NCBI GenBank assembly: GCA_021810565.1
Contig: JAJZIM010000012.1
Coordinates: 325-64,324 of the forward strand
Direction: 5' to 3'
Origin: Bacillota bacterium
GTDB lineage: Bacteria; Bacillota; Sulfobacillia; JAJZIM01
Length of the DNA stretch: 64,000 bases
Part shown: one piece after another, positions 9,462 through 64,000 of the stretch
How the letters are laid out: each line of letters opens with the position of its first letter
How positions within the stretch are numbered: the first letter of the stretch is position 1
The notes under the pieces: model-generated
The model's database searches: none
Seen by the model: only the letters and a program-made list of their open reading frames with translations
What the model was told of the DNA's origin: nothing
Position numbers and translations under genes: made by a program

Positions 9462-10871
9462 TTGAACGGCATCGTCAAATGGTTCGACGAGCGCACGGGT
9501 TGGGCCAAGGGGATCCAGGAGTACATGGTCCACCCGGTGCCGCGCCTGGTGAGTCCTTTGGATTTTCTGGGCGTGGCGGCGCTGTTCTTGTTCATCAACC
9601 AGGCCGTGACCGGCATCTTCCTGGCCATGTTCTACGTGCCCTCGGCCGCGTCCTACGCGCCGCATCCGTCCCTGTCCATGGCCTACGAGAGCATCCTGTT
9701 CATCATGTACAAGGTACCTCTGGGCTGGGTGGTGCGCGACCTGCACTTCTGGGGCGCCAACCTGATGGTGATCATTGTGGTGACCCACATGCTGCGGGTT
9801 TTCTACGAGGGAGCGTACAAGAAGCCGCGAGAGGTCACCTGGTGGGCCGGGGTTGGGCTCATTTTGATCACCCTAGCCTTGGCCTTCACCGGCTACCTCT
9901 TGCCCTGGGACCAGCAGTCCTTCTGGGCCACCGCCGTGGGTACGGCCATGTTCAAGTTCGCGCCGTTCCTGGGCCACTGGCTGATGACCCTATTCCAGGG
10001 CGCCGAGTTCACCAACAGCCTGACCCTGACCAGGTTCTACTCCCTGCACATGCTGCTCTTGCCAGCGCTGCTGGTGCTGCTCTTCGCCGTGCACTTCACC
10101 ATGGTGCTCAAGCAGGGGATGTCCTTCATCGAGGAGGGGGAGGGCGCACCCAAGCAGAAGACGGTGCCCTTCTATCCCTACACGGCCTTCCAGATGAACA
10201 TCGTGGTGCTGGCCACGGCGGCGGTGCTGCTGTTCATGGCCGCGGAGTACCTGGCGCCCCTGGTGGCGCCGGCGGATCCCCTGAACAAGGCCATGTACGT
10301 GCCGATCCCGCTGTGGTACTTCTTCTGGGTGTACCAGTTCCTGAAGTTCATACCCTACTACCTGGATCCGGTGGGGATCATCGTGATCCCGGGGATCGCC
10401 GTGCTGGCCCTTTTGGCCCTGCCCCTCCTCGACCGGGGGACGCACCGGGAGGCCTCCCGGCGCAAGCCCATCATCGCGGCGGGCGGGTTGGCGGTGGCGG
10501 CCCTGGTGTGGCTTACCTACCTGGGCTTCGTCACGGTGCCTACCCCGCTGCCCAGCACCTTGGAGGCCCAGGCCCATCCCACCTTCTCCGGCACCGTGGA
10601 GCCGATCCTGTCGGGCAACTGCGTGTCCTGCCACGGGCCCACGGGGGGGAACATGGCGGGGCAGGACTTCACCACCTACGCCGGGGTGATGAAGGGCGGC
10701 AACGCCGGGAAGGTGGTGGTGCCCGGCAAGCCCGACCAGAGCAAGCTGGTGCTGGTGCTGACCGGCAAGGTGTCCGGGGTGCCCTCCATGCCGCTGGGTC
10801 GTGGGGCATTGCCCTCCGCCTGGATCCAGGACGTGGCCAAGTGGGTACAGCTGGGGGCCAAGAACGACTAG
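9462..10871 (+). CDS. qcrB: Cytochrome b of the bc complex, a single 469-aa polypeptide that appears to fuse cyt b6, subunit IV and a C-terminal mono-haem cytochrome c domain (CVSCHG)
   Basis: TTG start with a ggaaagggggaaggg RBS. It carries His-rich TM helices typical of cyt b (WGANLMV, THMLR, PWDQ). The C-terminal third has a CxxCH motif. Confidence 0.8.
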   Translation: MNGIVKWFDERTGWAKGIQEYMVHPVPRLVSPLDFLGVAALFLFINQAVTGIFLAMFYVPSAASYAPHPSLSMAYESILFIMYKVPLGWVVRDLHFWGANLMVIIVVTHMLRVFYEGAYKKPREVTWWAGVGLILITLALAFTGYLLPWDQQSFWATAVGTAMFKFAPFLGHWLMTLFQGAEFTNSLTLTRFYSLHMLLLPALLVLLFAVHFTMVLKQGMSFIEEGEGAPKQKTVPFYPYTAFQMNIVVLATAAVLLFMAAEYLAPLVAPADPLNKAMYVPIPLWYFFWVYQFLKFIPYYLDPVGIIVIPGIAVLALLALPLLDRGTHREASRRKPIIAAGGLAVAALVWLTYLGFVTVPTPLPSTLEAQAHPTFSGTVEPILSGNCVSCHGPTGGNMAGQDFTTYAGVMKGGNAGKVVVPGKPDQSKLVLVLTGKVSGVPSMPLGRGALPSAWIQDVAKWVQLGAKND

Positions 10872-10915: not shown

Positions 10916-11120
10916 AGGTCTTGGCGATGCTGGCGATATCCCGGATCACCACCTCGGTGGATAGGATGCTGCCGGTGGGGGAACAGGTTGCCAGGATCAG
11001 GTAGGAGCAGTCGATGACGCCGGACAAAAGGCCGGTGATGGTCACGCCGTTGTTCAGCAGGATCGCCACGTTGTCGCCTACCAGGCTCGCCAGCAAGGTG
11101 CAAAAAGGGGTCCAATTCAC
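10914..11120 (-). CDS. Small conserved hypothetical protein, paralog 1 of 3 (motif FCTLL..LVGDNVAILLNNGVTITG..DCSYL)
   Basis: 68-aa ORF. It shares a roughly 55-aa core with the next two genes. Confidence 0.5.
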   Translation of the reverse strand: MNWTPFCTLLASLVGDNVAILLNNGVTITGLLSGVIDCSYLILATCSPTGSILSTEVVIRDIASIAKT

Positions 11121-11180
11121 GGCCAGGCACCTCCTTCGGGAAGGCGGGGCGTCCGCCCGGGCGGGGGTGGGGTAGGGCTC

Positions 11181-11447
11181 TCAGGTCTTGGCGATGGTGG
11201 CGATGCTGCGGATCACCACGTAGCTGGAGGTGATGACACCGCTGACGCAGGTCTGCAGGGTGAGGTAGGAGCAGTCGTTGACCGCGGAGAGCATGCCGGT
11301 GATGGTCACGCCGTTGGTCAAGAGGATCGCCACGTTGTCCCCCACCAGGGTGGTGAGGAAGGTGCAGAAAGGTCCCCAGCAGAAGCCGGGGTCGTTGCCG
11401 TTGGCCATGTTTTTCCCTCCTTTCGTTGCGTTCGGCGCGCTGCCCAA
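11181..11447 (-). CDS. Small conserved hypothetical protein, paralog 2 of 3
   Basis: 88-aa ORF with the same core as paralog 1 (FCTFLTTLVGDNVAILLTNGVTITGMLSAVNDCSYLTLQTC) plus a short N-terminal extension. Confidence 0.5.
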   Translation of the reverse strand: MGSAPNATKGGKNMANGNDPGFCWGPFCTFLTTLVGDNVAILLTNGVTITGMLSAVNDCSYLTLQTCVSGVITSSYVVIRSIATIAKT

Positions 11448-11454
11448 GGGCAGG

Positions 11455-11886
11455 TCAGGTTTGCCGACAATTCGAGGGGACGGCGGAGGTCTTGGCGACG
11501 GTGTAGACGGCGGCCAAGGGGACGTAGCTGGAGGCCAGGGCGCCGCTGGGGGTGCAGGTCTGCAAGGTGAGGTAGGAGCAGTCGTTGACCGCGGATAGCA
11601 GACCGGAGAGGGTGGTGCCGCCGGCCAGCAGCAGCACCACGTTGTTGCCCACCAGGCCGGCTAGGAAGCTGCAGAATGGTCCGGAGGCGAAACCGGTGGC
11701 GCCTCCCGCCAACCAGGGCGGCGGCGGGTCGGGGGCGCCGGGCGGCGCCGTCACCGGCCAGGGGATGCCGCCTCCCCCACCACTCGCCACCTTCATGCTT
11801 TGAGCACAGGGATCGGCAGCCGGCAGTTCGTGGGCGCTGGGCTCCGCCGGCAGCTCGGACCGCTCTTCAGGCGTCCTTTCGTCCAT
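11455..11886 (-). CDS. Small conserved hypothetical protein, paralog 3 of 3, with an added Pro/Gly/Ala-rich N-terminal extension
   Basis: 143-aa ORF. The C-terminal 60 aa are homologous to the two downstream genes. The start is uncertain. Confidence 0.45.
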   Translation of the reverse strand: MDERTPEERSELPAEPSAHELPAADPCAQSMKVASGGGGGIPWPVTAPPGAPDPPPPWLAGGATGFASGPFCSFLAGLVGNNVVLLLAGGTTLSGLLSAVNDCSYLTLQTCTPSGALASSYVPLAAVYTVAKTSAVPSNCRQT

Positions 11887-50108: not shown

Positions 50109-50249
50109 AGCGGCCCACGGGGCGTGGGATTGCCTGCGGGCATGCAGTCTTGCGAACACGTTTTCGGAAGGTTGTATAGTAGACATGGGGTAGACTTTTA
50201 CTTTATGATTGCTGGGAGAACCCAAGCGCAAAAGCAGAAAGGGGGGAAG

Positions 50250-50275
50250 CCGAGGGGCCGGATCCGGCCCCTCGG
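50250..50275. promoter_or_regulatory. 26-nt perfect palindrome CCGAGGGGCCGGATCCGGCCCCTCGG, ending 9 nt before the start codon of the giant peptidase gene
   Basis: Read directly. It is its own reverse complement. Confidence 0.5.
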
Positions 50276-50283
50276 CAAGGCGG

Positions 50284-53200
50284 ATGGGGAGCAGATGGTG
50301 GGGAAGGTGGCTGATCCTGTCCTTGGCGGCGACGTTCCTGACGATCTCCTCGGCCTCGGTCTTGGCCGCGCCGGGAAGTTCGCGCGTGGCCTTGGGCGGC
50401 GTGCGACCGTTGGCGGTGCGCCAGGGCCTGGCGACCCGGGTGGGGGCGGTCCCCGCCGACCAGTCCATAACCTTGGTGGTCGGCCTGAAGCTGGCCCATC
50501 CCAACGCCCTGCACAGCCTGTTGGCCGCGCAGCGGGCCTCCGGGGCCGGATTTGTGACCGCCCAGCAGTTCGCCGACCGCTTCGGACCCTCCGCCGGCGC
50601 CTACCAGGCGGTGGTCTCCTTCCTACGGGGGCAGGGTTTCCAGGCGAGCACTTCGCCCAACCGGTTGCTGGTGACCGCCAGGGGCACGGTGGCCCAGGCC
50701 GAGGCCGCCTTTGCCGTGGGCCTGGCCAGCTACCGCTACCAGGGCGGCGTGTACCGGGCTCCCACCGCGACGCCGCAGATCCCCGCCTCCCTGAGCGGGA
50801 TCATCCAGTCGGTGGCCGGCCTGGACAACTTCCCGGTGTTCAAGCCGCAGTTGTCCCGCCTGAACCTGCCGCTGGGTGCAGGCGTGGCCAATTCCGTCTA
50901 CTATGGGTCGGACGGCTATACGCCCTTGGGGATCCGCACGGCCTACAATGTGCCCTCGGGCGCGGGAGCCCCCACGGGTGCCGGACAAAGCGTGGACATC
51001 GTCATCTGGGACGCCGTCAGCCCGGCGGACGTGGCAGGCTTTGACGCCGCCTACGGGCTGCCGCCGGCGGTCATCAACCAGTACCCGGTGGCTGGCACCC
51101 CCGTGGTGAACTTCAGCGACGCCACCCCCGAGGCGGACATCGACGCCGAGTGGGCGCACTCCATCGCGCCGGGGGCCACCATCAACATCTACGAGGCGGC
51201 CAACTCCGGGCTCGCCCAACTGGAGGAGGCGCTGAACGAGGCGGTGGTGCAGCATGCCGCCAACGTCTTGAACATGAGTTGGGGGGCACCGGAGAACCTG
51301 ATACCCATCAGCATCTTGGGCAGCTACGACGCGGTCATGGCCCAAGGGGCGGCCGAGGGCATGACCTTGGTGGCCGCCGCCGGGGACAACGGCGCGTACA
51401 CCGACGGCACCAGCCTCAGCGTGTCCTATCCCGCCTCGGACCCCTACGTCTTGGCGGCGGGAGGCACCACGCTGCAGATCAACGCCGACGGCACCTACAA
51501 GTCCGAGGCCACCTGGAACGGGCTGGAGAACCCCGTCGCCTGCCCCGCCTTCAGAGCTCCCGCACCGCCGCCCACCTTCGGGTACTGCGGCGATCGGGCC
51601 CACCCGCCCTACTACGACGGCGGAGGCGGCGGCTTCAGCAGCGCCTTCTCCGCCCCCAGCTACCAGGCGGCCACGGTGGACAACTACGTCTATGACGGCC
51701 AGGACTACAACCCGAGCGACATGCGGGGCATGCCCGACGTCGCCCTGAACGCGGGGGCGGGCACCGCGGGCTACGTGAACGGCTCCCTCGGCGGCTACAT
51801 CGGCACCAGCCTGGCGGCTCCCACCTGGTCGGGGATCGTCGCTCTGGCCGACCAGGAGCGCGCCGCGGCCGGTCTGCCGCCCCTGGGCAACCTGATGCCC
51901 TTTCTGTACGAGACGACGCCATCCATTGGTCAGGCGGGGGCGTCGGCGGTGCCGACACCTCCCCTGCACGACGTGACCGTGGGCGACAACAACGCCCTGG
52001 CGGCCACCGGCCCCTACTACGCCGCCGCCGGTTGGGATCCGGCCACCGGCTGGGGCAGCCCGAACGTCGCCGTGCTTCTGAGCGATCTGGCCGGGGTTAC
52101 CCTGCCCGCCAGCATCACCCTGTCGCCCACGGCCCTGGTGCCCGACTACCCGGCGCTCACCACCGTCACGGTGCAGGGGGTGGACACCCACTTCGCCGCG
52201 GGCACCACCGTGGCGGTCACCCAGGCCGGGGTGGCCGTGACCGGGGCGGTATCCAACGTCTCCGTGGTCAGCCCGACCAAACTCACTTTCCAACTGGCGG
52301 GCGGACTGCCCCAGGCCTTCTACGACGTGGCGGTCTCGGACACCACCGACGGCACCCTCACGGCACCCCTGGAGATCGGCACCGAGAGCATGGCCATCAG
52401 TCCCACCCAGGTGGCGGTGGGATACGGGGCCACCGACATCGCCATCACCGGCGACAACACCGACTTCGTGAGCGGATCCCTCACCGCCCAGGTGGTGCAG
52501 GCCGCCAACCTGGAGCAGGTCACCCAGCCGGCGGCGGTCGCCGTCAGCGGGCCGACGGCCGCCAGTTATGCCCTGCCCTTGGGGCTGCCGGTCGGCTCCT
52601 ACGACATCGTGGCCTACGACGAGAACGACGGGGTGGCGCTGCTGGCACCCTTCCAGGTGGTGGGAGTGTCCGCCGTGAGCGTGGGTGCCTTCCCGGCCAG
52701 CGTGCCGGCCAACGGCACGGCGGCATCCACCATCACGGCCAAGGTGTATGGCGCCGGGGGGGCGCCCCTTGCCGGGGTGACGGTGGACTTCGCCACGACG
52801 CTTGGCACCTTGAGCGCGACGTCGGCGACGACTGACGCCCAGGGGCAGGCCCAGGTGAGCCTAACCTCCACGGCGGCGGGCACGGCCACGGTCACCGCCA
52901 CGGCCCAGGGGGTGTCGGGCACGGCCCAGGTGACGTTCACCCCGGTGGTTTCCCAGGTCAGCGTGACGGCCTCGCCTGCCAGCGTGCCGGCCAACGGCAC
53001 GGCGGCCTCCGGCATAACGGCGACGGTGACCGACGCGGCGGGGGCGCCGCTGTCCGGGGTGACGGTGGACTTCGCCACGACGCTTGGCACCTTGAGCGCG
53101 ACGTCGGCGACGACCAACGCCCAGGGGCAGGCCCAGGTGAGCCTAACCTCCACGGCGGCGGGCACGGCCACGGTCACCGCCACGGCCCAGGGGGTGTCGG

Positions 53201-54477
53201 GCACGGCCCAGGTAACGTTCACCCCGGTGGTGTCCCAGGTGAGCGTGACGGCCTCGCCAGCCAGCGTGCCGGCCAACGGCACGGCGGCCTCCGGCATAAC
53301 GGCCACGGTGACCGACGCGGCGGGGGCGCCGCTTGCCGGGGTGACGGTGGAGTTCACCACGACCCTCGGCACCTTGAGCGCGACGTCGGCGACGACCGAC
53401 GCCGAGGGTCAGGCCCAGGTGAGCCTAACCTCCACGGCGGCGGGCACGGCCACGGTCACCGCCACGGCCCAGGGGGTGTCGGGCACGGCCCAGGTAACGT
53501 TCACCCCGGTGGTTTCCCAGGTGAGCGTGGCGGCCTCGCCAGCCAGCGTGCCGGCCAACGGCACGGCGGCCTCCGGCATAACGGCCACGGTGACCGACGC
53601 GGCGGGGGCGCCGCTTGCCGGGGTGACGGTGGACTTCACCACGACGCTTGGCACCTTGAGCGCGACGTCGGCGACGACCGACGCCGAGGGGCAGGCCCAG
53701 GTGAGCCTAACCTCCACGGCGGCGGGCACGGCCACGGTCACCGCCACGGCGCAAGGGGTGTCTGGCACGGCCCAGGTGACGTTCACCTCCGCGGTGCAGA
53801 TCGCGCCCAACGTCAAGTACCAGGTGCTGCGGCGCAGCGAGAACTGGGCGGGACTGGTGGTGGACCATCCCGGGGACACCGGAGTGAGCGCCCAATGGAA
53901 GATCCCTGCGGCTCCGGCCACCTTGGGCAGCTACGTGGCCCAGGCGGTGGGCATCGGCGGCTTCCAGACCTCCGACCTGCTGGCCGTGGGCACCCAGGAG
54001 CAAGCGGTCCAGGGACAGGCATCCTACGTGGCCTTCTGGGAGACGGCTCCGGGCAACGAGGTCGCCATCGGATCGGTCCCGGTGCACCCGGGTGACCGGG
54101 TGGCGGCTTCCCTGCACGAGGTCAGCCCCGGCCAGTGGCAGATCACCCTACGGGATCTGACCAGCGGGCAAACCTTCACCCAGGTGGTCAGCTACGACTC
54201 CAGCCGCTCCTCGGCCGAGATCCTGTTGGCCGACCCGTCCCAGGGCGGGAGCATCCTGCCCCTGGGCGACTTCGGGCGGCTGGTGTTCAGCCACGGCCAA
54301 GTGACCCGCAACGGCTCGACCCTGCCCATCCTGCTGGCAGGTGCGCTGCCGGTGGAGATGGTCAATCCGGCTAGCAAGACCTTGGAGGTGCGGATAGTGC
54401 CGCTGATCGACCGCGGCGTGGGAGCCTTCGAGGCGGTGTATCTGGCGCCCGGGACTCCTGCGGCGGCGCAGCGCTGA
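50284..54477 (+). CDS. Giant secreted multi-domain protease: signal peptide, pro-kumamolisin activation domain, sedolisin (S53) catalytic domain, about 5 tandem Big_1 Ig-like domains, and a C-terminal G1 (eqolisin-like) domain
   Basis: Signal MGSRWWGRWLILSLAATFLTISSASVLA. S53-type SGTSLAAP serine motif. The C-terminal 230 aa are a clear paralog of the 45604..46488 product (SENWAGLVV, YVAFWETAP, SAEILLADP). Confidence 0.75.
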   Translation: MGSRWWGRWLILSLAATFLTISSASVLAAPGSSRVALGGVRPLAVRQGLATRVGAVPADQSITLVVGLKLAHPNALHSLLAAQRASGAGFVTAQQFADRFGPSAGAYQAVVSFLRGQGFQASTSPNRLLVTARGTVAQAEAAFAVGLASYRYQGGVYRAPTATPQIPASLSGIIQSVAGLDNFPVFKPQLSRLNLPLGAGVANSVYYGSDGYTPLGIRTAYNVPSGAGAPTGAGQSVDIVIWDAVSPADVAGFDAAYGLPPAVINQYPVAGTPVVNFSDATPEADIDAEWAHSIAPGATINIYEAANSGLAQLEEALNEAVVQHAANVLNMSWGAPENLIPISILGSYDAVMAQGAAEGMTLVAAAGDNGAYTDGTSLSVSYPASDPYVLAAGGTTLQINADGTYKSEATWNGLENPVACPAFRAPAPPPTFGYCGDRAHPPYYDGGGGGFSSAFSAPSYQAATVDNYVYDGQDYNPSDMRGMPDVALNAGAGTAGYVNGSLGGYIGTSLAAPTWSGIVALADQERAAAGLPPLGNLMPFLYETTPSIGQAGASAVPTPPLHDVTVGDNNALAATGPYYAAAGWDPATGWGSPNVAVLLSDLAGVTLPASITLSPTALVPDYPALTTVTVQGVDTHFAAGTTVAVTQAGVAVTGAVSNVSVVSPTKLTFQLAGGLPQAFYDVAVSDTTDGTLTAPLEIGTESMAISPTQVAVGYGATDIAITGDNTDFVSGSLTAQVVQAANLEQVTQPAAVAVSGPTAASYALPLGLPVGSYDIVAYDENDGVALLAPFQVVGVSAVSVGAFPASVPANGTAASTITAKVYGAGGAPLAGVTVDFATTLGTLSATSATTDAQGQAQVSLTSTAAGTATVTATAQGVSGTAQVTFTPVVSQVSVTASPASVPANGTAASGITATVTDAAGAPLSGVTVDFATTLGTLSATSATTNAQGQAQVSLTSTAAGTATVTATAQGVSGTAQVTFTPVVSQVSVTASPASVPANGTAASGITATVTDAAGAPLAGVTVEFTTTLGTLSATSATTDAEGQAQVSLTSTAAGTATVTATAQGVSGTAQVTFTPVVSQVSVAASPASVPANGTAASGITATVTDAAGAPLAGVTVDFTTTLGTLSATSATTDAEGQAQVSLTSTAAGTATVTATAQGVSGTAQVTFTSAVQIAPNVKYQVLRRSENWAGLVVDHPGDTGVSAQWKIPAAPATLGSYVAQAVGIGGFQTSDLLAVGTQEQAVQGQASYVAFWETAPGNEVAIGSVPVHPGDRVAASLHEVSPGQWQITLRDLTSGQTFTQVVSYDSSRSSAEILLADPSQGGSILPLGDFGRLVFSHGQVTRNGSTLPILLAGALPVEMVNPASKTLEVRIVPLIDRGVGAFEAVYLAPGTPAAAQR
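52654..53790 (+). repeat. Tandem array of 297-nt repeats (about 3.8 copies, above 95% identity at nucleotide level), each encoding one Big_1 domain of the giant protease
   Basis: Period 297 is seen between 52951, 53248 and 53545, with near-identical strings such as gtgagcctaacctccacggcggcgggcacggccacggtcaccgccacggcccagggggtgtcgggcacggcccaggt. Confidence 0.75.
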
Positions 54478-54511
54478 GGCAGTAAAGGCGAGGTAGGGGA
54501 GGGGGAGAAGG

Positions 54512-57121
54512 ATGCGGCTTAGATGGGGCGCGGGACGCGGGTTGTACCTCCTGTCGGCACTGTTGCTGGTGGCCGGGTGCAGCGCCTCGCCGCCCTCATC
54601 GGGTAGCTCCTTCTCCCGGGTTCCCTCTTCGGCCGCCAGCGGTTCCACGGTGGCCTCCCGGGTGTATGCCGATGTCTATGCTCCCATTCCTGGGTTGGCG
54701 GTAAGCGTGGGTTACGCGGATACCCTGCGCGCCAGCAATCCTCCAAATTTTCCGAATCCGTGGTATAATAGCCCGGGAGTGAACTTCATCGGCGCCGGTG
54801 GGCCTTGGGATGCGGGAGCGATTATGCTGCAAAACACCACCGCCACGCCCATCTCCGTCGCCAACGTGACGGTGACCCTGCCGGGTCCCCGGGGGGATAT
54901 AACCCCCGGCACGTCGGCCACGAGTTCCCTGTGGGGCTCCTTCACCATCCCTGCCGGTCAGGCGGCCATCTTGACGCAGACGGCGGGGGGCACCGGCAGC
55001 GCCGACAACTTCGACACCAGCGACCTGCCGCTGATTTCCACCTGCGGCCCGCCGGTAGCCTCCGACTTCTACCCGCCCCAGATCACCATCACCGCCGGCA
55101 GCGGAATGACCGCCACCTATGGGGACACGGGCCACGTCCTGGACACCGGAGGTTTCGACGGGGCCTGCGCCGGGGACGAGTCCCACCCGTGGACGCTCCT
55201 CACCACCGTGACGGCCTCGCCCTTCGACGCCGGGGGCCAGTGGTCGGTGACCGGCACGGTCACCTCCGGCCCGCAGGCGGGCTTGAGCGGAGGCGGCACC
55301 CTGGTCATCGATCAGGTGTACGGCGCCTCGCAGTTCACCGGGTCCTTCACCTTGCAGACCACGGCGGGGACGGTGTCCGGGAACATCGAGGACGGCACGG
55401 TCAGCGCTGATACCCTGCAGTTTCTGGCCGTGGCGGGCACGCTGCAGGACCAGGTGACGGTGGATTTGAGCACGGCGGGGGTTACCCAGATGGCGGGCAC
55501 CTGGCAGGACAGCCTGGGGAACCGGGGGACCATGGTGGCCACCCGCTCACTGCGGCTGAGCCTTGCCGCATCCACTGCCAGCGCCCAGGTGGAGCAGGCA
55601 GTGTACCTCACGGCGAAGCTGACGGATGCCGGAGGCTATCCCATCGGGGGACAGCCGGTGGACCTGCGGGTGATCTACGCTAGCGATGCGGGGGTAGGCC
55701 TCAGCGCGCAGACGCTGCTTACCGATGCCTCCGGTGAGGGAGTGTTCACGGTCACCAACGACCTCCCGGGAACGGTCACCCTCCAAGCCCTGTATCCAGG
55801 CCTTGCCGCCGCGACCACGGTCACCTGGTCCGGGGAGGTGGTGATCTCCCGGGTGCTACTCACCGCGTCACCGAGTTTTATCCCGGCCGACGGCCTCACC
55901 CCGGCCACCCTGACCGCCACGGTGTACGGGGGGAGCGGTCAGCCGTTGAAGGGGATTCCGGTGACCTTCACCTCCACCTTGGGGGTGCTGTCCAGCAGCC
56001 TGACCTCGGAGCAATTCACCAATGCAGCGGGGGAGGCCGGCGACGAACTGACCACCGGGCAGGTGGGGCAGGCGACGGTCACCGTGAGCGTGTACAACGG
56101 GCCCAGCCGGATCGTGCGCTTCGTGGCGGCCACGCCGGGGACCCTCCTGTCCGCCCAGGCCATCATCAACTGCGTGGGGCCGACCCAGTCATATTATGTC
56201 CCCCATACGTGGGGCAACCCTATCGGCTTCGGTCCCAACTCCATCGAGGCGTACAAGGTCGGCGCCGGGGACCTGCAGTTGTATTTCTCCGGCACCCGAC
56301 CGTTCATCGTCCTGGACTTCGGACGCCAAGCCCAAAACGCGGCGGGGCAATGGGAAGTGATATTGCCGAAGACCAAAAATTTGGCCCAGTCTCAGGCCTG
56401 GGTGGAGAAGGTGGCTGAGGCCTTCGTGGTGGGCTACGACAGCGCCGCCAACGCTGGCGGGAACGGCGCGGACTGGAGATGCACGGTGGTGGTGGGCACC
56501 AACAATAGCGACTACCCGTGGTCCGATACCGCGGGCGCCATCTCGCCGCTTTGGGCGCAGGCCGGGGCGGACTGGGCCGACATGGTCAATGCGATCCGCA
56601 CCCAGGTGGGGAAGATCCCGGGCAACGTGTGCAAGGTGGAGGGTGGCAGCGACATCGAGTCCTGGCTGGGGACACCGGGCTTCGGAAGCTGGGTGGCCAC
56701 CGGAGCCGCCACGGAGCAGTGGGTTAGCGCCTACAATTGGGCATTCAAAGGGAGCCTGATGGTGGACTACGGCAGCGATGGGTACGCCGAGGACTCCGGA
56801 GAGTGGACCACCACCCAGACGATGGCCGTGGCGGACGGATACGATTTGGTATCCCTGGATAGCTTCAACAGCCAGGGGCTGTGCAATTACTGCAAAGACG
56901 TTGCCCTGCCGGAGATCTATTATCCAGGTCAAGCATCGGAGTGGGTATACCTGTGTGAGCAATTCTACGAGCCGTTGTTAGGAGATTATCCCTATATATG
57001 GGGGGTGACATCAGAAAACGGCTGGGACGGCTCCTTGGCGTGGGGTAGGTCATGGCAGGCTCTGTATGACGACTTCAGCGAGGTGTGGCATCCGGTAGAT
57101 GGACGCATCACGATTATTTAG
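54512..57121 (+). CDS. Surface lipoprotein with Big_1 (invasin-like Ig) domains and a roughly 330-aa C-terminal domain of unknown function. This is the full-length member of the repeat family.
   Basis: Lipobox LLVAGCSAS. The middle 420 aa correspond to repeat segment A. Confidence 0.7.
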   Translation: MRLRWGAGRGLYLLSALLLVAGCSASPPSSGSSFSRVPSSAASGSTVASRVYADVYAPIPGLAVSVGYADTLRASNPPNFPNPWYNSPGVNFIGAGGPWDAGAIMLQNTTATPISVANVTVTLPGPRGDITPGTSATSSLWGSFTIPAGQAAILTQTAGGTGSADNFDTSDLPLISTCGPPVASDFYPPQITITAGSGMTATYGDTGHVLDTGGFDGACAGDESHPWTLLTTVTASPFDAGGQWSVTGTVTSGPQAGLSGGGTLVIDQVYGASQFTGSFTLQTTAGTVSGNIEDGTVSADTLQFLAVAGTLQDQVTVDLSTAGVTQMAGTWQDSLGNRGTMVATRSLRLSLAASTASAQVEQAVYLTAKLTDAGGYPIGGQPVDLRVIYASDAGVGLSAQTLLTDASGEGVFTVTNDLPGTVTLQALYPGLAAATTVTWSGEVVISRVLLTASPSFIPADGLTPATLTATVYGGSGQPLKGIPVTFTSTLGVLSSSLTSEQFTNAAGEAGDELTTGQVGQATVTVSVYNGPSRIVRFVAATPGTLLSAQAIINCVGPTQSYYVPHTWGNPIGFGPNSIEAYKVGAGDLQLYFSGTRPFIVLDFGRQAQNAAGQWEVILPKTKNLAQSQAWVEKVAEAFVVGYDSAANAGGNGADWRCTVVVGTNNSDYPWSDTAGAISPLWAQAGADWADMVNAIRTQVGKIPGNVCKVEGGSDIESWLGTPGFGSWVATGAATEQWVSAYNWAFKGSLMVDYGSDGYAEDSGEWTTTQTMAVADGYDLVSLDSFNSQGLCNYCKDVALPEIYYPGQASEWVYLCEQFYEPLLGDYPYIWGVTSENGWDGSLAWGRSWQALYDDFSEVWHPVDGRITII
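54863..56128 (+). repeat. Repeat segment A (1.27 kb), near-identical at nucleotide level to 62168..63434. Its first roughly 500 nt are also near-identical to 58046..58545.
   Basis: Long stretches are identical, for example ggcccgccggt.gcctccgacttctacccgccccagatcaccatcacc. The homology has sharp boundaries. Confidence 0.8.
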
Positions 57122-57208
57122 GTACGGGATGCTGTAGACAGTAGAGGCCGACTTGGTAAGGGAAGGTGCTGAGAGAAAATATGATGGCGAAAGGCAGGTG
57201 CCCAATGG

Positions 57209-58039
57209 ATGCTGGCCGCTAAACATCTGATCCTGCTGGCGGCAGCAGTCGTTGTCGTGGCCGGCGGGACATGGAGGGTGGTCTCGTCGCTGAACGCTGG
57301 TCAGACGATCGGTGTCCAGGGAGGCTTCGTAACCAAGCTGCCATCTCTGAAGGGCAAGAGCCCGAAGGAGATAGAGGCGATAACGCAGAGGCTTTTGAAT
57401 GCCAACACAGCGCGGTATGTCCGCTACGCACACCTGCTAAGCAAGAAGTTTGTGGCTGAATATGGCATGCATCCAACGCCTCAGCAGGCACAATTGGCAT
57501 ACACGGCCTTTCATGCGCTGCGCGAGGAGTTGAACAAGGCCAACGAGGCGCTGAACCAGCAGATGATTGCTGCATTGCCTACTCCCAAGCCGATGACCCT
57601 CCAACAGGAGAAGGAGCAGTATGAGCGGAGGCTAAAGGCGGAACAAAAAGCAATCAAGGAGATGGAGATACCCGGACCGGCTTCCCCGCCAGGAGCGCCT
57701 CCTGGTTTTGTGAATATGATCGTTCGTGGAGGAGCTGGAAAAGACTCCAGTGAATGGAACTTAGGCTATAACCCAGCGACCAGTAACCAATTCACTGGTT
57801 ATTCAGGTCATGTCCGTGGGCATCCGCAAGAAGGAGTAATCTTCATTGTGGTGACAAGTGAAGTCCTCACGCCCCACAAATCCACACGGGGCGGGGCATG
57901 GATCGCCCCGCGTCCCATCGGAGGCATCGCCATCACCGCGGTGCATGGCAATGTGATCGACTTCGATAGTGACAGCGGCGTGACGGGCACCTTCAACATG
58001 GTCACCCACCAGTGGACCTTCAATCCAGCGCCCGGCTAG
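57209..58039 (+). CDS. Hypothetical membrane-anchored protein on a low-GC insert
   Basis: N-terminal TM segment (LILLAAAVVVVAGG). GC is around 50-55% against about 70% in the flanks. Confidence 0.4.
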   Translation: MLAAKHLILLAAAVVVVAGGTWRVVSSLNAGQTIGVQGGFVTKLPSLKGKSPKEIEAITQRLLNANTARYVRYAHLLSKKFVAEYGMHPTPQQAQLAYTAFHALREELNKANEALNQQMIAALPTPKPMTLQQEKEQYERRLKAEQKAIKEMEIPGPASPPGAPPGFVNMIVRGGAGKDSSEWNLGYNPATSNQFTGYSGHVRGHPQEGVIFIVVTSEVLTPHKSTRGGAWIAPRPIGGIAITAVHGNVIDFDSDSGVTGTFNMVTHQWTFNPAPG

Positions 58040-59361
58040 ACCGGAGCGGCCCGCCGGTGGCCTCCGACTTCTACCCGCCCCAGATCACCATCACCGCGGG
58101 TAGTGGAATGACCGCCACCTACGTGGACACGGGCCACGTCCTGGACACCGGAGGTTTCGACGGAGCCTGCGCCGGGGACGAGTCCCACCCGTGGACGCCC
58201 CTCACCACCGTGACGGCTTCGCCCTTCGACGCCGGGGGCCAGTGGTCGGTGACCGGCACGGTCACCTCCGGCCCGCAGGCGGGTTTGAGCGGGGGCGGCA
58301 CCCTGGTCATCGATCAGGTGTACGGCGCCTCGCAGTTCACCGGGTCCTTCACCTTCCAGACCACGGCGGGGACGGTGTCCGGGAACATCGAGGACGGCAC
58401 GGTCAGCGCTGATACCCTGCAGTTTCTGGCCGTGGCGGGCACGCTGCAGGACCAGGTCACGGTGGACCTGAGCACGGCGGGGGTGACCCAAATGGCGGGC
58501 ACCTGGCAGGACAGCCTGGGGAACCGGGGGACCATGGCGGCCAGCCGGGGGTTGGAGCTCACCATGAGTGCATCTCCCTCCAGTCCCACGGTTGGTCAGA
58601 CAGTGTATCTGACGGCAACCTTGAGCGATGCCGCCGGCTACCCAATAGGGGGGCAGCCGGTGAACTTCGGGGTCGTGTATGAGACCCGAAACGGGGTCAG
58701 CTTAAGCGAAGCCGCGGCGACCACCGGATCCACCGGCCAGGCCGTAGTGGCGGCAGGCGACGACTTGGGTGGCCAGGTCACGTTCCGGGCCTCCTATCCC
58801 GGTGCAATCGCTGAACTGACTGTCGACTGGAGCGGAACCGTAGCCGCGACTCGCGTGGTACTGTCGGCCACTCCAGGGGTGATCCCGAACAACGGCAGCA
58901 CGCCGGCCACCATCACGGCTACGGTGTACGGGCCGGATAACCGGTTGCTGGCCGGAGTGCCGGTAACCTTTAGCACCGACCTGGGGCAGCTCGCCAGCAC
59001 CCGGAGCATGTCCAGAGTGATCTTCACCGATGCCCAAGGGCAGGCGGCAGATCAGCTCACGGCAAGGGAGACGGGCACTGCCACGGTCACGGTGGCTGTG
59101 TACAATGCTCCGCCAACGACGATTGGCTTTGTAACCACGCAATCAACGCTGGGCGATGCATGCTTGGTGGAAGTGGAGCCAAGTTCACCAAGTCAAGGTT
59201 ATGATTTGGAACAGCTATATAATTACGATCCAGCCGATGGTGTCACATGGGTTACCGCCAATGCCACATGGGCATATGATTTGGGGAGTTGGGATGCTCG
59301 ACATAATTACTCGGGTGGTATTCTTATGATTGGTAGCCCTACGGCCTTTCTCGATGCGTAA
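58012..59361 (+). pseudogene. 5'-truncated mosaic paralog of the 54512 lipoprotein (copy B). The first roughly 165 codons are about 99% identical to copy A, and the remainder is about 50% identical.
   Basis: It begins in frame immediately after the TAG of the preceding gene, with no RBS or signal peptide. Homology to A starts at 58046. Confidence 0.5.
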
Positions 59362-59442
59362 ACGTGTGATCCCGCTGTTTCTGGATGTACAGCGCATGAT
59401 GCCTTTTCTTCTGCGCAGGATGTAGATAGTTGGCTGATTGGG

Positions 59443-60663
59443 ATGCACAACGATTATATCGCGGGACATGCTTCGGTGGTCAATGCCATGCCTCAGGTAT
59501 ATCTTTCCTTTAGCAATATCGCGTCAATAGGGGTACATTACTATGCTGGCCAGCTGGCCGGGGAATGGACCTATCCCGACGGTGCCTGGATCGACTTTGA
59601 GGGTAGCTATTCGACGGCGTCGCAGGCTTTGACTGAGTTGAGCGGCTGGGCCGAGAAGGCTCCCAAGGGGAGCACCATCATGGATGAGGGTTGGAGAGCG
59701 GAAGATTGGCCATATGGCGATTCAAGTAGTGGCATGATGGGCTACATCACGGAACTCGACAAGATCAACAAGGCGTCGGTGGGAGAGAACTACGACAAAT
59801 ATCCGTTGTACCCCCAGGACTACTATCTCAATATGTGCCAACCCCAAGAGTATCCTCTAGCGGATTGCAGTCCCAATAGCTCTCAACCCTTCATCGGGGG
59901 GTTCGTAGGGGGCATAACCGCAGCGCATTTCATTGGCCCCCACGGGAATCTTCACACCATTCATGAGGAGTGGAACAATTACCAATCGGAACCATATCCA
60001 TTTAACTACTTTGCAGCGATCGTCGTTTATCAGGCCTATTATACGGTTTCTAATTGGTCGGTGTCCGCGTCACGCGAGTCGTTGCCCACGGTAGCACCTG
60101 CAGGAGCCTCCCTACAGACGTTGCTGCAGAGCCTGAAGGTTCGGGAGCGGGCACGTGCCAAAGAAGCTTCGACATTTTTCAAGAAGATAGATGCTTTGAA
60201 CAGGAAATATCCTTTCTCCGGCCCTGTCATTCCTCCACCACAGATCCTCCCTCCGAAGCCGCCTTACTCACCATCCGAACCTCATCCTACCTCCTGCCGC
60301 ATGTTCACGGCGAAGGTCTTGGCCCAGGTTTTTCGCACGGCAGGGTTGAATCCCGCAACAGGTCCGCTCATTCTTACTGGTAAGTGTTGGCGCATCAACT
60401 CGGGGCTGGTGATGTCGGGTGCGATGACCGAGCAGGGCGGCATGCCGTTCCTGATGTTGGAGGACCAGGGCCGTCCCGAGCTCGTGAGCGATCCCATAAG
60501 GCAGGTGAACGGTCCGGTCTTGATACTGGGGATGAAGACCGGCTGGGTCGCGGTGGCGCAGGGTTACGGCTACGCGTTGTACGATCCATCCACCTATCAG
60601 TGGGCGGCCTCCGACAACACCCTGCAGCCGTTCAAAGGAGAAGTGACGCCGCCGCTCGGGTAA
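59443..60663 (+). CDS. Hypothetical protein, possibly the detached C-terminal part of the copy-B paralog. Low GC.
   Basis: Weak similarity to the C-terminal domain of the 54512 product (for example SGWAEKAPKG against QAWVEKVAEA). Confidence 0.35.
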   Translation: MHNDYIAGHASVVNAMPQVYLSFSNIASIGVHYYAGQLAGEWTYPDGAWIDFEGSYSTASQALTELSGWAEKAPKGSTIMDEGWRAEDWPYGDSSSGMMGYITELDKINKASVGENYDKYPLYPQDYYLNMCQPQEYPLADCSPNSSQPFIGGFVGGITAAHFIGPHGNLHTIHEEWNNYQSEPYPFNYFAAIVVYQAYYTVSNWSVSASRESLPTVAPAGASLQTLLQSLKVRERARAKEASTFFKKIDALNRKYPFSGPVIPPPQILPPKPPYSPSEPHPTSCRMFTAKVLAQVFRTAGLNPATGPLILTGKCWRINSGLVMSGAMTEQGGMPFLMLEDQGRPELVSDPIRQVNGPVLILGMKTGWVAVAQGYGYALYDPSTYQWAASDNTLQPFKGEVTPPLG

Positions 60664-60715
60664 GCCACGCTCCCGCCGGGGGAGCCGGATCACTCTGCAT
60701 CGAAGGTGATGGCAA

Positions 60716-62143
60716 GTGTCTGGCATGGAACACGTCAAGAGTTGGATTGCCGCTAGAGGAAAGGCCAAGGTGGCAGCCGGGGTAGTGGCGGGGGTCCTGG
60801 TAGCTGCGGGAATTGCCGCCGCGTTGGCCCTTTCCTCTAGCCGAAGTTTGCGAGGGGCGGTACCCTCAAGCGAAGGTAATGCATCATCCACAATCTCCCC
60901 AAAGGCTAAGACCGGATGCGGACGAACAGCAGCCGGTATATTGGATGCTAATGGCCGGCCATATCGGGGCCTGCATTTTGCTCCAGTGGCAGTGGCTATG
61001 GATACCTACGGCAATATATATATTTTGTCAGCCCAAATATGGGTATTGTCGGCGCGAAATGAGACTCTCTTTGGAATAAGACTGCGGCAATCACATATGT
61101 ATAGTTTAGTCGCAAGTCCGCCATATCCTGCCCATTATGAACCTCCCGCCCCGCTGGGTTACGTCCACAGCGGCCATCCTGCCGAGTTATTTCCTGGCGG
61201 GAACATCTCACAGTTGGCGGTAGGGCCGAACAGCGGCGTGTTCTTTACCGCCGGATGGAACGGTGGTAGTAGTATCTTCCTCCTTGCCAGCAGAAACGAA
61301 ACGCGCTTCGGCAAACGGATGCAGGCGGGACACATCTATCCTGTGGCCGGCAACGGCAAGCCAGGCTGGTGGCGGTTCGGGGGCAACGGCGGTCCGGCCA
61401 CCAAAGCCGGATTGGGGGACCCCGCGGGGATGGCAGTGGACAGCCGCGGCAACCTATATATAGCCCAAATGGGCGGGCCGGGAGCCGTGTGGGTGGTGGC
61501 GGCGCATAATGAACAACTTTTTGGAAAAGCAATGAAGCAAGGCAATATATATCTAATAGCGGGAGGCTTAGCGTCCCCTCAGTCCGGTAAGCCATATTCG
61601 TCTATTAGAAGCGGAATTCCCGGAACGGCTGCATTTACTGGTCCGGCATCTGACGTGGCAGTGGACAGTAGCAGCAATGCCTATATGGATGCTTCCAGGA
61701 TGATAGCGGCACAAAAAGAAAGCATGTGGGGCTTTAAAATGAAGGCTGGGGACATCTATACCATTGCGCACGGCCATGCAGGGGGGCGTTTTATTGCCCT
61801 GGGAGCACATAGGAATATATTCGTAGCGAACTATTTTCGCAACAATATGGTGCAAATGATTGCTAATTATAGCGAAACACGATTTGGTATCCGCATGAAA
61901 GCAGGTCACGTCTACACGGTGGCGGGAAACACAGCGCGGGGCTGCACAGGTAATGGTGGGCCGGCCACCGAAGCCGAACTGAACAAACCCGCAAGCCTCG
62001 CATTAGGGAAGCACGGCAACCTGTACATCGCCGACGAGGGCAATGGCGTGGTGCAGGTGGTAGCAGCCCGTAACGAAACCCGTTTCGGGATACCCATGAA
62101 AACAGGGTGCCTCTACACCATCGTGGCTCAGCGAAAGCAATAA
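60716..62143 (+). CDS. NHL-repeat (six-bladed beta-propeller) protein with an N-terminal membrane anchor
   Basis: Repeats of ARNETRFG.(R/K)MKAGH.Y.VAGNG..G..GPAT.A.L..P.G.A.D..GNLYIA. Reduced GC. Confidence 0.65.
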   Translation: MSGMEHVKSWIAARGKAKVAAGVVAGVLVAAGIAAALALSSSRSLRGAVPSSEGNASSTISPKAKTGCGRTAAGILDANGRPYRGLHFAPVAVAMDTYGNIYILSAQIWVLSARNETLFGIRLRQSHMYSLVASPPYPAHYEPPAPLGYVHSGHPAELFPGGNISQLAVGPNSGVFFTAGWNGGSSIFLLASRNETRFGKRMQAGHIYPVAGNGKPGWWRFGGNGGPATKAGLGDPAGMAVDSRGNLYIAQMGGPGAVWVVAAHNEQLFGKAMKQGNIYLIAGGLASPQSGKPYSSIRSGIPGTAAFTGPASDVAVDSSSNAYMDASRMIAAQKESMWGFKMKAGDIYTIAHGHAGGRFIALGAHRNIFVANYFRNNMVQMIANYSETRFGIRMKAGHVYTVAGNTARGCTGNGGPATEAELNKPASLALGKHGNLYIADEGNGVVQVVAARNETRFGIPMKTGCLYTIVAQRKQ

Positions 62144-62146
62144 CCA

Positions 62147-63569
62147 TTGGGTAGCAATGACCATCGTAATGCGACGGTGACCCTTCCGGGACCCCGGGGG
62201 GACATAACCCCCGGCACGTCGGCCACGAGTTCCCTGTGGGGATCCTTCACCATCCCTGCCGGTCAGGCGGCCATCTTGACGCAGACGGCGGGGGGCACCG
62301 GCAGCGCCGACAACTTCGACACCAGCGACCTGCCGCTGATTTCCACCTGCGGCCCGCCGGTGGCCTCCGACTTCTACCCGCCCCAGATCACCATCACCAC
62401 CGGCGGTGGAACGACCGCCACCTACGTGGACACGGGCCACGTCCTGGACACCGGAGGTTTCGACGGTGCCTGCGCCGGGGACGAGTCCCACCCGTGGACG
62501 CCCCTGACCACCGTGACGGCTCCACCCTTCGACGCCGGGGGCCAGTGGTCGGTGACCGGCACGGTCACCTCCGGTCCCCAGGCAGGCCTGGGCGGGGGCG
62601 GCACCCTGGTCATCGATCAGGTGTACGGCGCCTCGCAGTTCACCGGGTCCTTCACCTTCCAGACCACGGCGGGGACGGTGTCCGGGAACATCGAGGACGG
62701 CACGGTCAGCGCTGACACCCTGGAGTTTCTGGCCGTGGCGGGCACGCTGCAGGACCAGGTCACGGTGGACCTGAGCACAGCGGGGGTGACCCAGATGGCG
62801 GGCACCCGGCAGGACAGCCTGGGGAACCGGGGGACCATGGTGGCCACCCGCTCATTGCGGCTGAGCCTTGCCGCATCCACTTCCAGCGCCCAGGTGGAGC
62901 AGGCGGTGTATCTCACGGCGAAGTTGACGGATGCAGGCGGCTATCCCATCGGGGGACAGCCGGTGGACTTGCGGGTGATCTACGCTAGCGATGCTGGGCT
63001 AGGCCTCAGCGCGCAGACACTGATTACCGATGCCTCCGGTGAGGGAGTGTTCACGGTCACCAACGACCTCCCGGGAACGGTCACCCTCCAAGCCCTGTAT
63101 CCGAGTCTTGCCGCCGCGGCCACGGTTACCTGGTCCGGGGAGGTGGTGATCTCCCGGGTGCTACTCACCGCGTCACCGAGCTTTATCCCGGCCGACGGCC
63201 TCACCCCGGCCACCCTGACCGCCACGGTGTATGGGGAGAGCGGTCAGCCGTTGAAGGGAATCCCGGTGACCTTCGCCTCGACCTTGGGGGTGCTGTCCGG
63301 CAGCCTGACCTCGGGGGAATTCACCAATGCCGAGGGGGGAGGCCGCCGACGAGCTGACCACCGGGCAGGTGGTACAGGCGACGGTCACCGTCACCGTGTA
63401 CAATGGGCCTACCCGGATCGTACGTTTCGTGGCGTTCGGGCTCTTGGTGGCGAACGTGGTGGCGACGGTTCAAAGCTTGGGGTTGATCGCACCAGTTTTG
63501 GCTGATGGGTTCCTGGCGGCCTGCGGCTTTGCGGTGAACCAGCGCACCAGGATAGCCGGCACAGCCTAG
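62147..63569 (+). pseudogene. 5'-truncated copy C of the lipoprotein repeat family, near-identical to A over 1.27 kb but frameshifted at a G6 run (63334-63339, G5 in copy A)
   Basis: ORFs 62147..63505 and 63327..63569 are the two frames on either side of the homopolymer indel. It starts right after the TAA of the NHL gene. Confidence 0.5.
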
Positions 63570-63684
63570 TGGCGGCTGGGGGTGCAGGTCGGGCGCGGTT
63601 TTGCCCCGACGGCGTACCTGAACCCCTGACCGGTTCGGCCATTTAGGACTTGGCCCGGCATTTTGCGGTAGGAGGCGATGTGGG

Positions 63685-64000
63685 ATGAGCGCGGCCCAAT
63701 ACGGTCAGCACAAATGCGTCATGGTCATCGACGGGGACCTGCCCCTGGGGCTTATCGCCAACACGGCGGCGGTTTTGGCCCTGTCGCTGGGGGCGAGGAT
63801 CCCGTTGCTGGGTCCGGAGGTGGTGGACGGTTCGGGCTCACCGCACGCCGGCATCACAACCACTCCGATACCCATTTTGAAGGGCGAGGCCGAAAAGGTA
63901 CGCGACATCCGGGCCCAGGCGGCAGGCATGGGGGAAATGTTCGTGGTGGACATCACTAACGCGGCCCAGACCACCCGGAACTACGAGGACTACACCGCCA
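63685..64000 (+). CDS. DUF2000-like small protein (partial, runs off the window end)
   Basis: ATG after a ggtaggagg RBS. MSAAQYGQHKCVMVIDGDLPLGLIANTAAVLALSLG fits the DUF2000 N-terminus. Confidence 0.4.
   Translation, partial: MSAAQYGQHKCVMVIDGDLPLGLIANTAAVLALSLGARIPLLGPEVVDGSGSPHAGITTTPIPILKGEAEKVRDIRAQAAGMGEMFVVDITNAAQTTRNYEDYTA

Follow-up and report, generated by a model that had tools for sequence, protein, structure and literature searches.

In the Neisseria pilE/pilS, Borrelia vlsE and Anaplasma msp2 systems conserved sequence lies on both sides of a hypervariable segment, the cassettes are many, and segmental conversion is reversible. A different arrangement is found in the orphan arrays of Rhs and CdiA loci, in which a complete gene is followed by 5'-truncated fragments of varying homology length; the fragments lack initiation and export signals, each carries a different C-terminal domain and a small downstream gene, the homology stops abruptly at the payload boundary, and strains are rearranged, among other ways by fusion of the main gene with an orphan (PMC3150448, PMC3967940). 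Polymorphic toxins more generally join a constant 5' body for trafficking and presentation to 3' cassettes of a payload and its partner gene, and include Ig-like stalks as well as membrane-bound or secreted partners of surface-acting payloads (PMC3482391). The array described here, one complete lipoprotein gene followed by two truncated copies of it, occupies positions 54,512 to 63,569 of a stretch of 64,000 nucleotides (nt) from a member of the Bacillota (GTDB class Sulfobacillia, JAJZIM01; assembly GCA_021810565.1, contig JAJZIM010000012.1, positions 325 to 64,324), which is called the window below.

We read the array as a modular locus for a surface lipoprotein, in which the 3' end of the gene has been replaced several times and the displaced orphans recombine and decay; the probability of this reading is put at roughly 0.6. 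On this reading the properties of Rhs/CdiA and polymorphic toxin loci listed above recur in it, including strain rearrangement, where contig L012 is comparable to the main gene-orphan fusions of Y. pestis Microtus and evolved Salmonella. The RHS/YD repeats, the FHA/TPS domain and the VENN or PxxxxDPxGL motif of Rhs and CdiA loci are all missing from it; its export is predicted to proceed by Sec with a lipobox in a monoderm thermophile, its homology block includes whole Big_1 domains, its payload is a domain of 330 amino acids (aa) resembling a TIM barrel and is a putative toxin only, and its orphans and one orphan partner gene are visibly decaying. By these absences it does not belong to the Rhs or CdiA families, and we classify it as a known architecture that would be new in a family of Ig-stalk lipoproteins whose payloads and partners fall in undescribed families.

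Repeat Copies and Their Boundaries

The whole 64-kb window was compared with itself by BLASTN and with a repeat finder. Both recovered the three repeat copies, A, B and C, named in the preliminary description of this DNA, with coordinates accurate to the base, and self-BLASTN found no fourth copy within the window. All genes of the array lie on the + strand and may be co-transcribed. Its features are as follows (GC, G+C content; GC3, G+C content at third codon positions; CT_A and CT_B, the C-terminal domains of copies A and B).

54512..57121, + strand: A869, complete lipoprotein gene, probably expressed (open reading frame (ORF), translation, Pfam)
54868..56128, + strand: repeat copy A, the reference (BLASTN, repeat finder); its sub-block 55044-55543 is common to A, B and C
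56129..57121, + strand: CT_A, candidate payload domain, TIM-barrel-like, 330 aa, GC 61%, GC3 0.79 (profile search, AlphaFold2, Foldseek)
57209..58039, + strand: g276, 276-aa partner of CT_A, membrane-anchored by an N-terminal hydrophobic segment (candidate immunity, inhibitor or accessory protein), GC 57%, GC3 0.65
58046..60663, + strand: copy B, 5'-truncated paralogue, a pseudogene in the window (BLASTN, alignment, translation)
58046-58545, + strand: 96% block of copy B
58546-59130, + strand: two divergent Big_1 domains of copy B, GC 64%, GC3 0.74
59131-60663, + strand: CT_B, GC 54%, GC3 0.40-0.66
60716..62143, + strand: g475, membrane-anchored NHL-repeat beta-propeller, partner gene downstream of module B (Pfam TEN_NHL, NHL, SBBP), GC 55%, GC3 0.56
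62168..63569, + strand: copy C, truncated at both ends (BLASTN, alignment); 62168-63434 is 94% identical to A aa ~119-539

By BLASTN, A (54868-56128) and C (62173-63434) are 94.2% identical over 1262 nt, with 72 mismatches, one indel and a bit score of 1944; A (55044-55671) and B (58046-58673) are 90.0% identical over 628 nt, and B and C 90.1%. Within the block common to all three copies (A 55044-55543) the identity is 96.2% for A-B, 95.6% for B-C and 94.4% for A-C. The preliminary description had called A and C near-identical, which overstated the case by these figures and passed over the indel, an extra G that shifts the frame of C; its value of about 99% for A and B over 500 nt was likewise too high. 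Taken per 100 nt along 55044-55543 / 58046-58545, the A-B identity is 94, 97, 98, 99 and 93%. Past 55543/58545 it falls to 51-62% at the nt level, and across the two Big_1 domains of A and B it is 50.5% at the aa level, in line with the earlier estimate of about 50%. The longest exact runs between the copy pairs are 119, 101 and 124 nt, none of them reaching 125 nt.

The edges of the blocks coincide with domain edges, at aa ~345 between the mid-domain and Big_1 and at aa 539 between Big_1 and the C-terminal domain. The A-C homology stops exactly after ...IVRFVA (56128/63434). This sharp 3' boundary had been ascribed to both extra copies and is exact for the A-C pair only: at the aligned position B reads ...TIGFVT, is diverged, and departs into its own C-terminal domain. 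No 3' homology among the module tails was detected by BLASTN at word size 7. As first reported, both truncated copies begin a few nt past the stop codon of the preceding gene. The homology of B starts 7 nt past the TAG of g276 (58037-58039), at A residue ~179, and that of C about 25 nt past the TAA of g475 (62141-62143), at A residue ~119. Their reported lack of export and initiation signals holds for the signal peptide, which is absent from both, and for C, which has no Shine-Dalgarno sequence; B retains a weak GGAG 10 nt ahead of an in-frame GTG at 58057, the start used by gene callers.

The Complete Gene and Its C-Terminal Domain

A869 encodes a protein of 869 aa whose signal peptide carries the lipobox VAGC (Cys23, at 54578-54580), and a strong Shine-Dalgarno sequence, GGGGAGGGGGAG, lies upstream. 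The exact protein is found on 7 contigs from independent samples. From the N-terminus it consists of an unnamed N-domain (aa ~57-232), a mid-domain (~236-345), two Big_1 domains (~346-539; Pfam E 2e-21) and CT_A (540-869). A Pfam scan of A869, B and C returned Big_1 only, with neither RHS/YD nor TPS/FHA domains; the invasin/intimin-type N-terminal beta-barrel PF11924 was not found in A869 by Pfam and is present only in distant E. coli-type matches.

CT_A has no sequence match in Pfam, NCBIfam or PDB. A profile built from 7 sequences identified 1225 representative proteins at E <= 1e-3. Among the 150 of these relatives that were listed, most are proteins of ~300-390 aa with little besides the CT_A domain, while some carry it C-terminally, after CBM_3, Laminin_G_3, malectin, Big_1 or SBBP; signal-like N-termini were seen only in the aligned P0032-P0034. 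The AlphaFold2 model of CT_A based on an alignment of 52 sequences has a predicted local distance difference test score (pLDDT) of 85 and a predicted template modelling (TM) score of 0.88, with alternating beta and alpha elements; it replaced an earlier, poor model from 7 sequences (pLDDT 51). With Foldseek the model gave weak matches only (E >= 1e-3, TM 0.3-0.46), mainly to TIM barrels of glycoside hydrolase families GH5, GH6, GH26 and GH86, and a D-x-E motif (alignment D176, E178; by hand conversion D715 and E717 of the full-length protein) is invariant across the family alignment. The model and these weak fold matches tentatively suggest that CT_A is a probable carbohydrate-active TIM-barrel enzyme of an undescribed family.

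In another paralogue from Thermaerobacter (P0035, contig L010 2607-4998) the N-terminal region differs, and two Big_1 domains are present together with a domain similar to CT_A. An in-frame TGA and a stretch that is out of frame interrupt the gene, so broken members of the family seem to be common in these metagenome-assembled genomes (MAGs).

Truncated Copies and Partner Genes

A membrane-anchored gene follows each payload, g276 after CT_A and g475 after CT_B. Pfam and NCBIfam scans found no family for g276; its match to the LprI lysozyme-inhibitor family (E 0.28) is non-significant. Homologues of g276 lie directly downstream of CT_A homologues in contig L009 (32% over 87 aa, E 5e-14) and in L015/L016 (53% over 45 aa, E 1e-11), and a CT_A homologue in L013 has no adjoining g276 homologue. 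Judged by gene order, CT_A and g276 are a two-gene unit conserved in two distant genomes. For g475 a plausible Shine-Dalgarno sequence, GGTGA, is present.

Copy B is interrupted in the window by a single nonsense codon, TAA at 59359-59361, which reads AAA in contig L006. The 406-aa ORF at 59443-60663, taken for an unrelated gene in the preliminary description, is B's own tail split off by this codon. In L006, L011 and a third contig (proteins P0002, P0188, P0189) B is one open ORF of 851 aa (868 if counted from the GTG at 58057). P0190 carries another nonsense allele, independent of the first, with a stop in place of a W codon; the window allele replaces K by TAA. CT_B, of ~500 aa, is unrelated to CT_A by hhalign (probability 0.4%), and A and B share a common stalk with different C-terminal domains. 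No homologue of CT_B was found outside its own cluster among 5.8 billion proteins. A resemblance between the C-terminal part of the 406-aa ORF and g276 had been considered and was dropped, being unsupported by BLASTP or hhalign. Recoding of stop codons, considered for the many in-frame stops, was rejected since TAA, TAG and TGA all occur.

In copy C an extra G in the run at 63334-63339 causes a +1 frameshift, which is also present in contigs L006 and L012; both Big_1 domains are retained at 94%. After ...IVRFVA the tail of C (63435-63569) continues for 44 codons in the frame of A without a payload domain, and the + strand ORF 63435-63569 has no NCBIfam match. A core DUF2000 gene follows. The 44-codon tail overlaps a 77-aa ORF on the - strand (63409-63642).

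Independent Assemblies and Structural Variants

All sequences compared are short-read metagenome assemblies, and the labels of the ENA contigs (k141_...) were taken to give the final k of the assembler, 141. Window 53550-64000 recurs at 100% identity in an ENA contig (L003), a contig of an NCBI MAG (L001) is 99.7% identical over the whole array, and the A-g276-B junction is present in three further contigs; the part from B through g475 and C to DUF2000 occurs in L006, from a Thermaerobacter MAG. The NCBI name of protein P0002 assigns the organism to Thermaerobacter. Scans for related arrays gave one irrelevant Alphaproteobacteria locus in the GTDB genomes and nothing in the JGI metagenomes, so that there is no isolate-grade genome with which the array could be compared.

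A repeat expansion or a chimeric join from a mixed population might in principle have produced the array during assembly. The contigs that match the window include MAG contigs, one contig (L007) is a loop of repeat length, and the variant bases within the B block match paralogues, all of which would fit such an origin. Nevertheless, six or more contigs, obtained with various assemblers from separate samples, show the same order and junctions, the copies differ from one another by 4-10%, and every copy has its own flanks and its own lesions. An assembly artefact is very improbable, because the same array occurs in independent contigs and the exact runs shared between copies are all shorter than k. 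L007 (2998 nt), considered as a tandem duplicate or a circle, has abutting ends and a length near the 3002-nt A-B period; it is probably a graph loop and was not used as evidence.

The preliminary description had proposed recombination or gene conversion between the copies, and the variants bear this out. Outside the tandem repeats of the upstream protease gene, all differences between assemblies fall inside the high-identity block of B (58048-58420). Each of the five variants of L001 (58096-58109) equals the base of copy C and two of the five also that of A, L001 being the only assembly whose variant bases were compared against paralogues. In the table of variable sites, patches are common to different copies in different assemblies, for instance at 55094-55100, although mixing of strains in short reads is a possible source of such mosaics.

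Larger rearrangements were also found. Contig L011 (8884 nt) holds a four-copy array consisting of the tail of A, g276, A', g276', an intact B, g475 and C, in which A' is an A-type copy that lacks its 5' part, shares the junction of B and stops prematurely, and g276' has two stops. Over its first 1329 nt L011 matches the window at 99.85%, and L006 and L011 are 99.83% identical over 5890 nt. Compared with these contigs, the window lineage appears to have lost, or never gained, one module of ~3 kb (A' with g276'). A reading of L006 as a divergent allele of the A tail and g276 was rejected, as L011 shows the additional module A'.

In contig L012 (3633 nt) the 5' part of A is fused to the 3' part of C, everything between is deleted, and DUF2000 follows directly. 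Where the two copies differ, it follows A as far as 55797 and C from 55798 onward; four isolated positions ahead of this switch agree with C instead, and one beyond it with A. The switch adjoins a 79-nt run identical in A and C, and a patch at 55369-55411 is common to L012 and the A' of L011. L012 is what a deletion by homologous recombination of direct repeats would be expected to leave. At its start, however, 141 nt without similarity to the window stand in place of the Shine-Dalgarno sequence and ATG of A, with the breakpoint at 54515/54516, 4 nt into the ORF, so that the variant is also damaged, or possibly chimeric. An insertion element ending there, a separate rearrangement or a chimeric end of the contig might account for the foreign 141 nt. 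L012 was also considered as the ancestral single-copy state, which was rejected, as it carries the frameshift of C and its first 141 nt are foreign. The stalk repeats (0.5-1.3 kb, 94-96%) seem now to serve as substrates for homologous recombination. Its natural variants with three, four or one copy make the array well suited to measuring how diverged repeats recombine in the wild.

Divergence, Composition and Origin of the Array

The divergence between the copies is mainly synonymous. The ratio of nonsynonymous to synonymous rates (dN/dS) is 0.20 for A-C (41 synonymous and 23 nonsynonymous differences), 0.10 for the A-B block and 0.08-0.34 for A-A'. For copies dead since a duplication in situ a value of ~0.55 would be expected, and the binomial p for A-C is ~1e-4, both obtained by hand arithmetic and not as tool output. 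Because the observed ratios are below this expectation, the copies probably diverged as parts of working genes and were juxtaposed or truncated recently. Composition also varies along the array: GC is 70% in the stalk repeats, with a GC3 of 0.85-0.92, and 68% in the window's first 50 kb; a GC trough (54-61%) at 56000-62200 coincides exactly with the payload domains and partner genes, within which the embedded stalk repeats stay at 70%.

In the proposed history the conserved 5' body (lipobox, N-domain, mid-domain and Big_1) would act as a stalk presenting the C-terminus outside the monoderm membrane, and the 3' end would be a C-terminal payload travelling with the downstream membrane-anchored partner gene. 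An incoming allele, consisting of the 3' part of a stalk, a payload and a partner, would enter by one crossover in stalk DNA and one illegitimate join, and the resident 3' part would be pushed downstream, becoming a promoterless orphan without a signal peptide right after the stop codon of the incoming partner. The window holds A with g276, then orphan B with its own Big_1 pair, CT_B and g475, then orphan C without a payload; in sister strains a further orphan, A' with g276', stands between g276 and B. Comparison of the assemblies shows what appears to be patch-wise gene conversion in the stalk repeats, the gain or loss of modules, and the A x C deletion; the orphans, presumably not expressed as surface proteins, decay. 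Successive replacement of the 3' end fits the array because of the synonymous divergence, the compositional outliers and the orphan starts right after the partner stops, though we infer the order and mechanism of the displacement events. The coincidence of block edges with domain edges, the conserved unit of CT_A and g276, the population variants and the presence of stalk domains ahead of RHS cores also speak for it. The same displacement model has been proposed for Rhs/CdiA orphan arrays and toxin-immunity cassettes (PMC3150448, PMC3967940, PMC3482391).

Several observations weigh against this history. No donor allele was found, CT_B being free of homologues and the GTDB and JGI scans yielding no further arrays; among the cluster members there is no full-length gene with CT_B; and no conserved peptide motif comparable to VENN or PxxxxDPxGL marks the payload boundary. 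Copy C, which has neither payload nor partner, is hard to see as a simple module and calls for one more deletion. The data are short reads, in which the mosaic patches, and perhaps L012, could be products of strain mixing or of the assembly graph. A purely local history of duplication, domain capture and deletions could also account for the array.

In the plainest form of such a history, in-place tandem duplication would have been followed by breakage through indels, leaving debris without modular logic. All truncated copies do bear inactivating lesions, the A' module of L011 looks as if the 3002-nt unit had been duplicated in tandem, its junction being the same, and P0035, another Thermaerobacter paralogue, is also disrupted. 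A dN/dS of 0.1-0.2 is, on the other hand, too low for copies dead since duplication; the Big_1 pair of B (50% aa identity), its unrelated payload and its own partner are compositionally foreign; and the junctions lie exactly after the stop codons of partner genes. Local turnover of this kind is rather unlikely as the whole explanation, and if the array were only gene-family debris it would be an ordinary case of paralogue turnover.

Comparison with Cassette-Switching Systems

The preliminary description had likened the array to silent cassettes and an expression locus. The likeness stands in so far as copies without export signals lie behind one complete, probably expressed copy; it fails in that the homology is one-sided, without a 3' flank, and in that the copies decay. 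In common with pilE/pilS, vlsE and msp2 the array has one expression site with truncated promoterless copies and apparent patch-wise exchange in a shared block. It differs in that homology is present only on the 5' side, what varies is an entire domain of unrelated sequence, and the copies are only 2-3 in number; no conserved flank on the 3' side, of the kind that pilS, vls and msp2 cassettes have, was found among the module tails by the BLASTN search at word size 7. Because the homology is only 5', exchange would be irreversible deletion or duplication and not reversible conversion of the pilS/vls type.

Programmed variation, in which B and C would be silent cassettes switching the displayed C-terminal domain after the manner of pilE/pilS, vlsE or the Salmonella Rhs orphan, accordingly has to be weighed against several facts. 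Promoterless and signal-less copies downstream of one expressed gene are what it predicts; B is fully open (851/868 aa) in three assemblies, the synonymous bias of the divergence could reflect selection on silent copies, and an A/C recombinant exists in L012. Yet any switch made without a 3' homology arm would be an irreversible deletion; C has no payload to offer; recombination of A with C yields a frameshifted gene, whose native start is moreover missing in L012; among the cluster members no fusion of A with B occurs; and the copies number only 2-3. The lesions, namely the frameshift in C, the two independent nonsense alleles of B and the stops in A', also argue against a maintained switching system. 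The array is probably not one, and programmed switching is an improbable account of it, while occasional loading of an orphan onto the main gene may still take place. The orphan C-terminal module arrays of Rhs/CdiA loci are the closer analogue (PMC3150448, PMC3967940). Orphans of the Rhs and contact-dependent inhibition (CDI) type can decay too.

Comparison with Polymorphic Toxins

Replacement of the 3' end does not depend on what the exchanged ends do, and a polymorphic toxin/immunity locus would be a functional overlay on that history, not exclusive of it. In such a locus A869 would be a surface antibacterial effector whose TIM-barrel payload attacks the cell-wall glycan of a neighbour, g276 would be its immunity protein, and B with g475 and A' with g276' would be orphan toxin/immunity pairs.

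The architecture found here is the full one of an orphan array. It comprises a full-length gene with an export signal and a conserved body common to A, B, C and RHS-core proteins; unrelated C-terminal domains on one body, with abrupt loss of homology; and, further downstream, 5'-truncated modules without initiation or export signals in which homology to the upstream gene is kept. The stalk occurs outside the array: the N-domain, with arrays of Big_1, MG4 and Big_3_5, lies ahead of PF03527 RHS cores in P0003, P0004, P0009 and P0018. Contig L014 (protein P0013; GC 63%), which shares its sample of origin with L007, has a mid-domain that matches window 58220-58549 at 80% of nt; after it come a YD shell, an RHS core (...IDPTGH) and a further C-terminal domain. 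These shared domains suggest that the stalk links the locus to polymorphic toxins. In L014 (1-2257), a related, Thermaerobacter-like contig, a YD-repeat ORF ends and the gene with the stalk mid-domain starts 7 nt later, which may be an RHS orphan junction.

The pairing of CT_A with g276 is kept in L009 and L015, both partner proteins are membrane-anchored and predicted to be extracytoplasmic, and the payload and partner regions are GC-poor, as would suit exchanged toxin and immunity genes. Immunity proteins that are membrane-bound or extracytoplasmic have been noted where the toxin acts at the cell surface, and the same paper lists toxin domains of glycohydrolase type as well as polymorphic effectors anchored through a lipobox (PMC3482391). 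Against a toxin stands the fact that CT_A matches no known toxin family, and that its relatives are mostly lone domains of ~300-390 aa or follow CBM_3, malectin or Laminin_G_3, as is typical of polysaccharide-degrading enzymes. As to immunity, the L013 homologue of CT_A lacks a partner gene, the similarity of g276 to lysozyme inhibitors is non-significant, and the orphan partner g276' has two stops, although a retained immunity gene would be expected to be intact. Unlike those of described polymorphic toxins, the payloads of this locus fall in no described toxin family and the partners in no described immunity family. On balance a toxin/immunity function is possible and can be proposed only tentatively.

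Two other conflict systems show partial likeness. For the effector and immunity modules of the Vibrio cholerae type VI secretion system (T6SS) it is reported that incoming modules displace residents and arrays remain (PMC5361080), as would be the case in our locus; there it is an array of immunity genes that accumulates, whereas here payload fragments and partners remain and no T6SS is involved. The immunity genes of Firmicute type VII secretion systems (T7SS) are likewise reported to be tandem paralogues in a conflict-type locus whose copy number shifts by homologous recombination (PMC9484751); their units are whole immunity genes, here they are truncated effector bodies.

If the 3'-end replacement reading is true, the pattern of a constant body, a swappable C-terminus and displaced orphans extends beyond Rhs, CdiA, MafB and LXG toxins and also shapes the lipoprotein-anchored Ig-stalk proteins of an uncultured thermophile. 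A bolder and rather doubtful proposal would make A869 and g276 the founding members of a class of Sec-exported, lipoprotein-anchored polymorphic effectors in thermophilic Firmicutes. These would combine an Ig-like stalk shared with RHS toxins of the same community with exchangeable payloads, one of them an undescribed family of TIM-barrel glycan hydrolases (~1200 representatives, no Pfam model) neutralised by a membrane-anchored partner, and the array would be a record of how payloads were exchanged within a compost or thermal community. The two unnamed families that travel as a pair, the TIM-barrel domain with its ~1200 representatives and the membrane-anchored partner, are testable as enzyme and inhibitor or as toxin and immunity protein.

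Other Features of the Window

Upstream of the array (window 50209-54477) lies a gene for a secreted protease with a pro-kumamolisin activation domain, tandem Big_1 units and a C-terminal Peptidase_A4 domain. Its Big_1 repeats (52666-53811) form four tandem 282-nt units that are 85-90% identical; two of these units are missing from contigs L001 and L002, because their copy number varies or because the assembly collapsed them. Self-BLAST also shows a tandem repeat at 10916-11696, diverged to 68-75% identity and situated just downstream of a cytochrome-b-like ORF (9462-10871).

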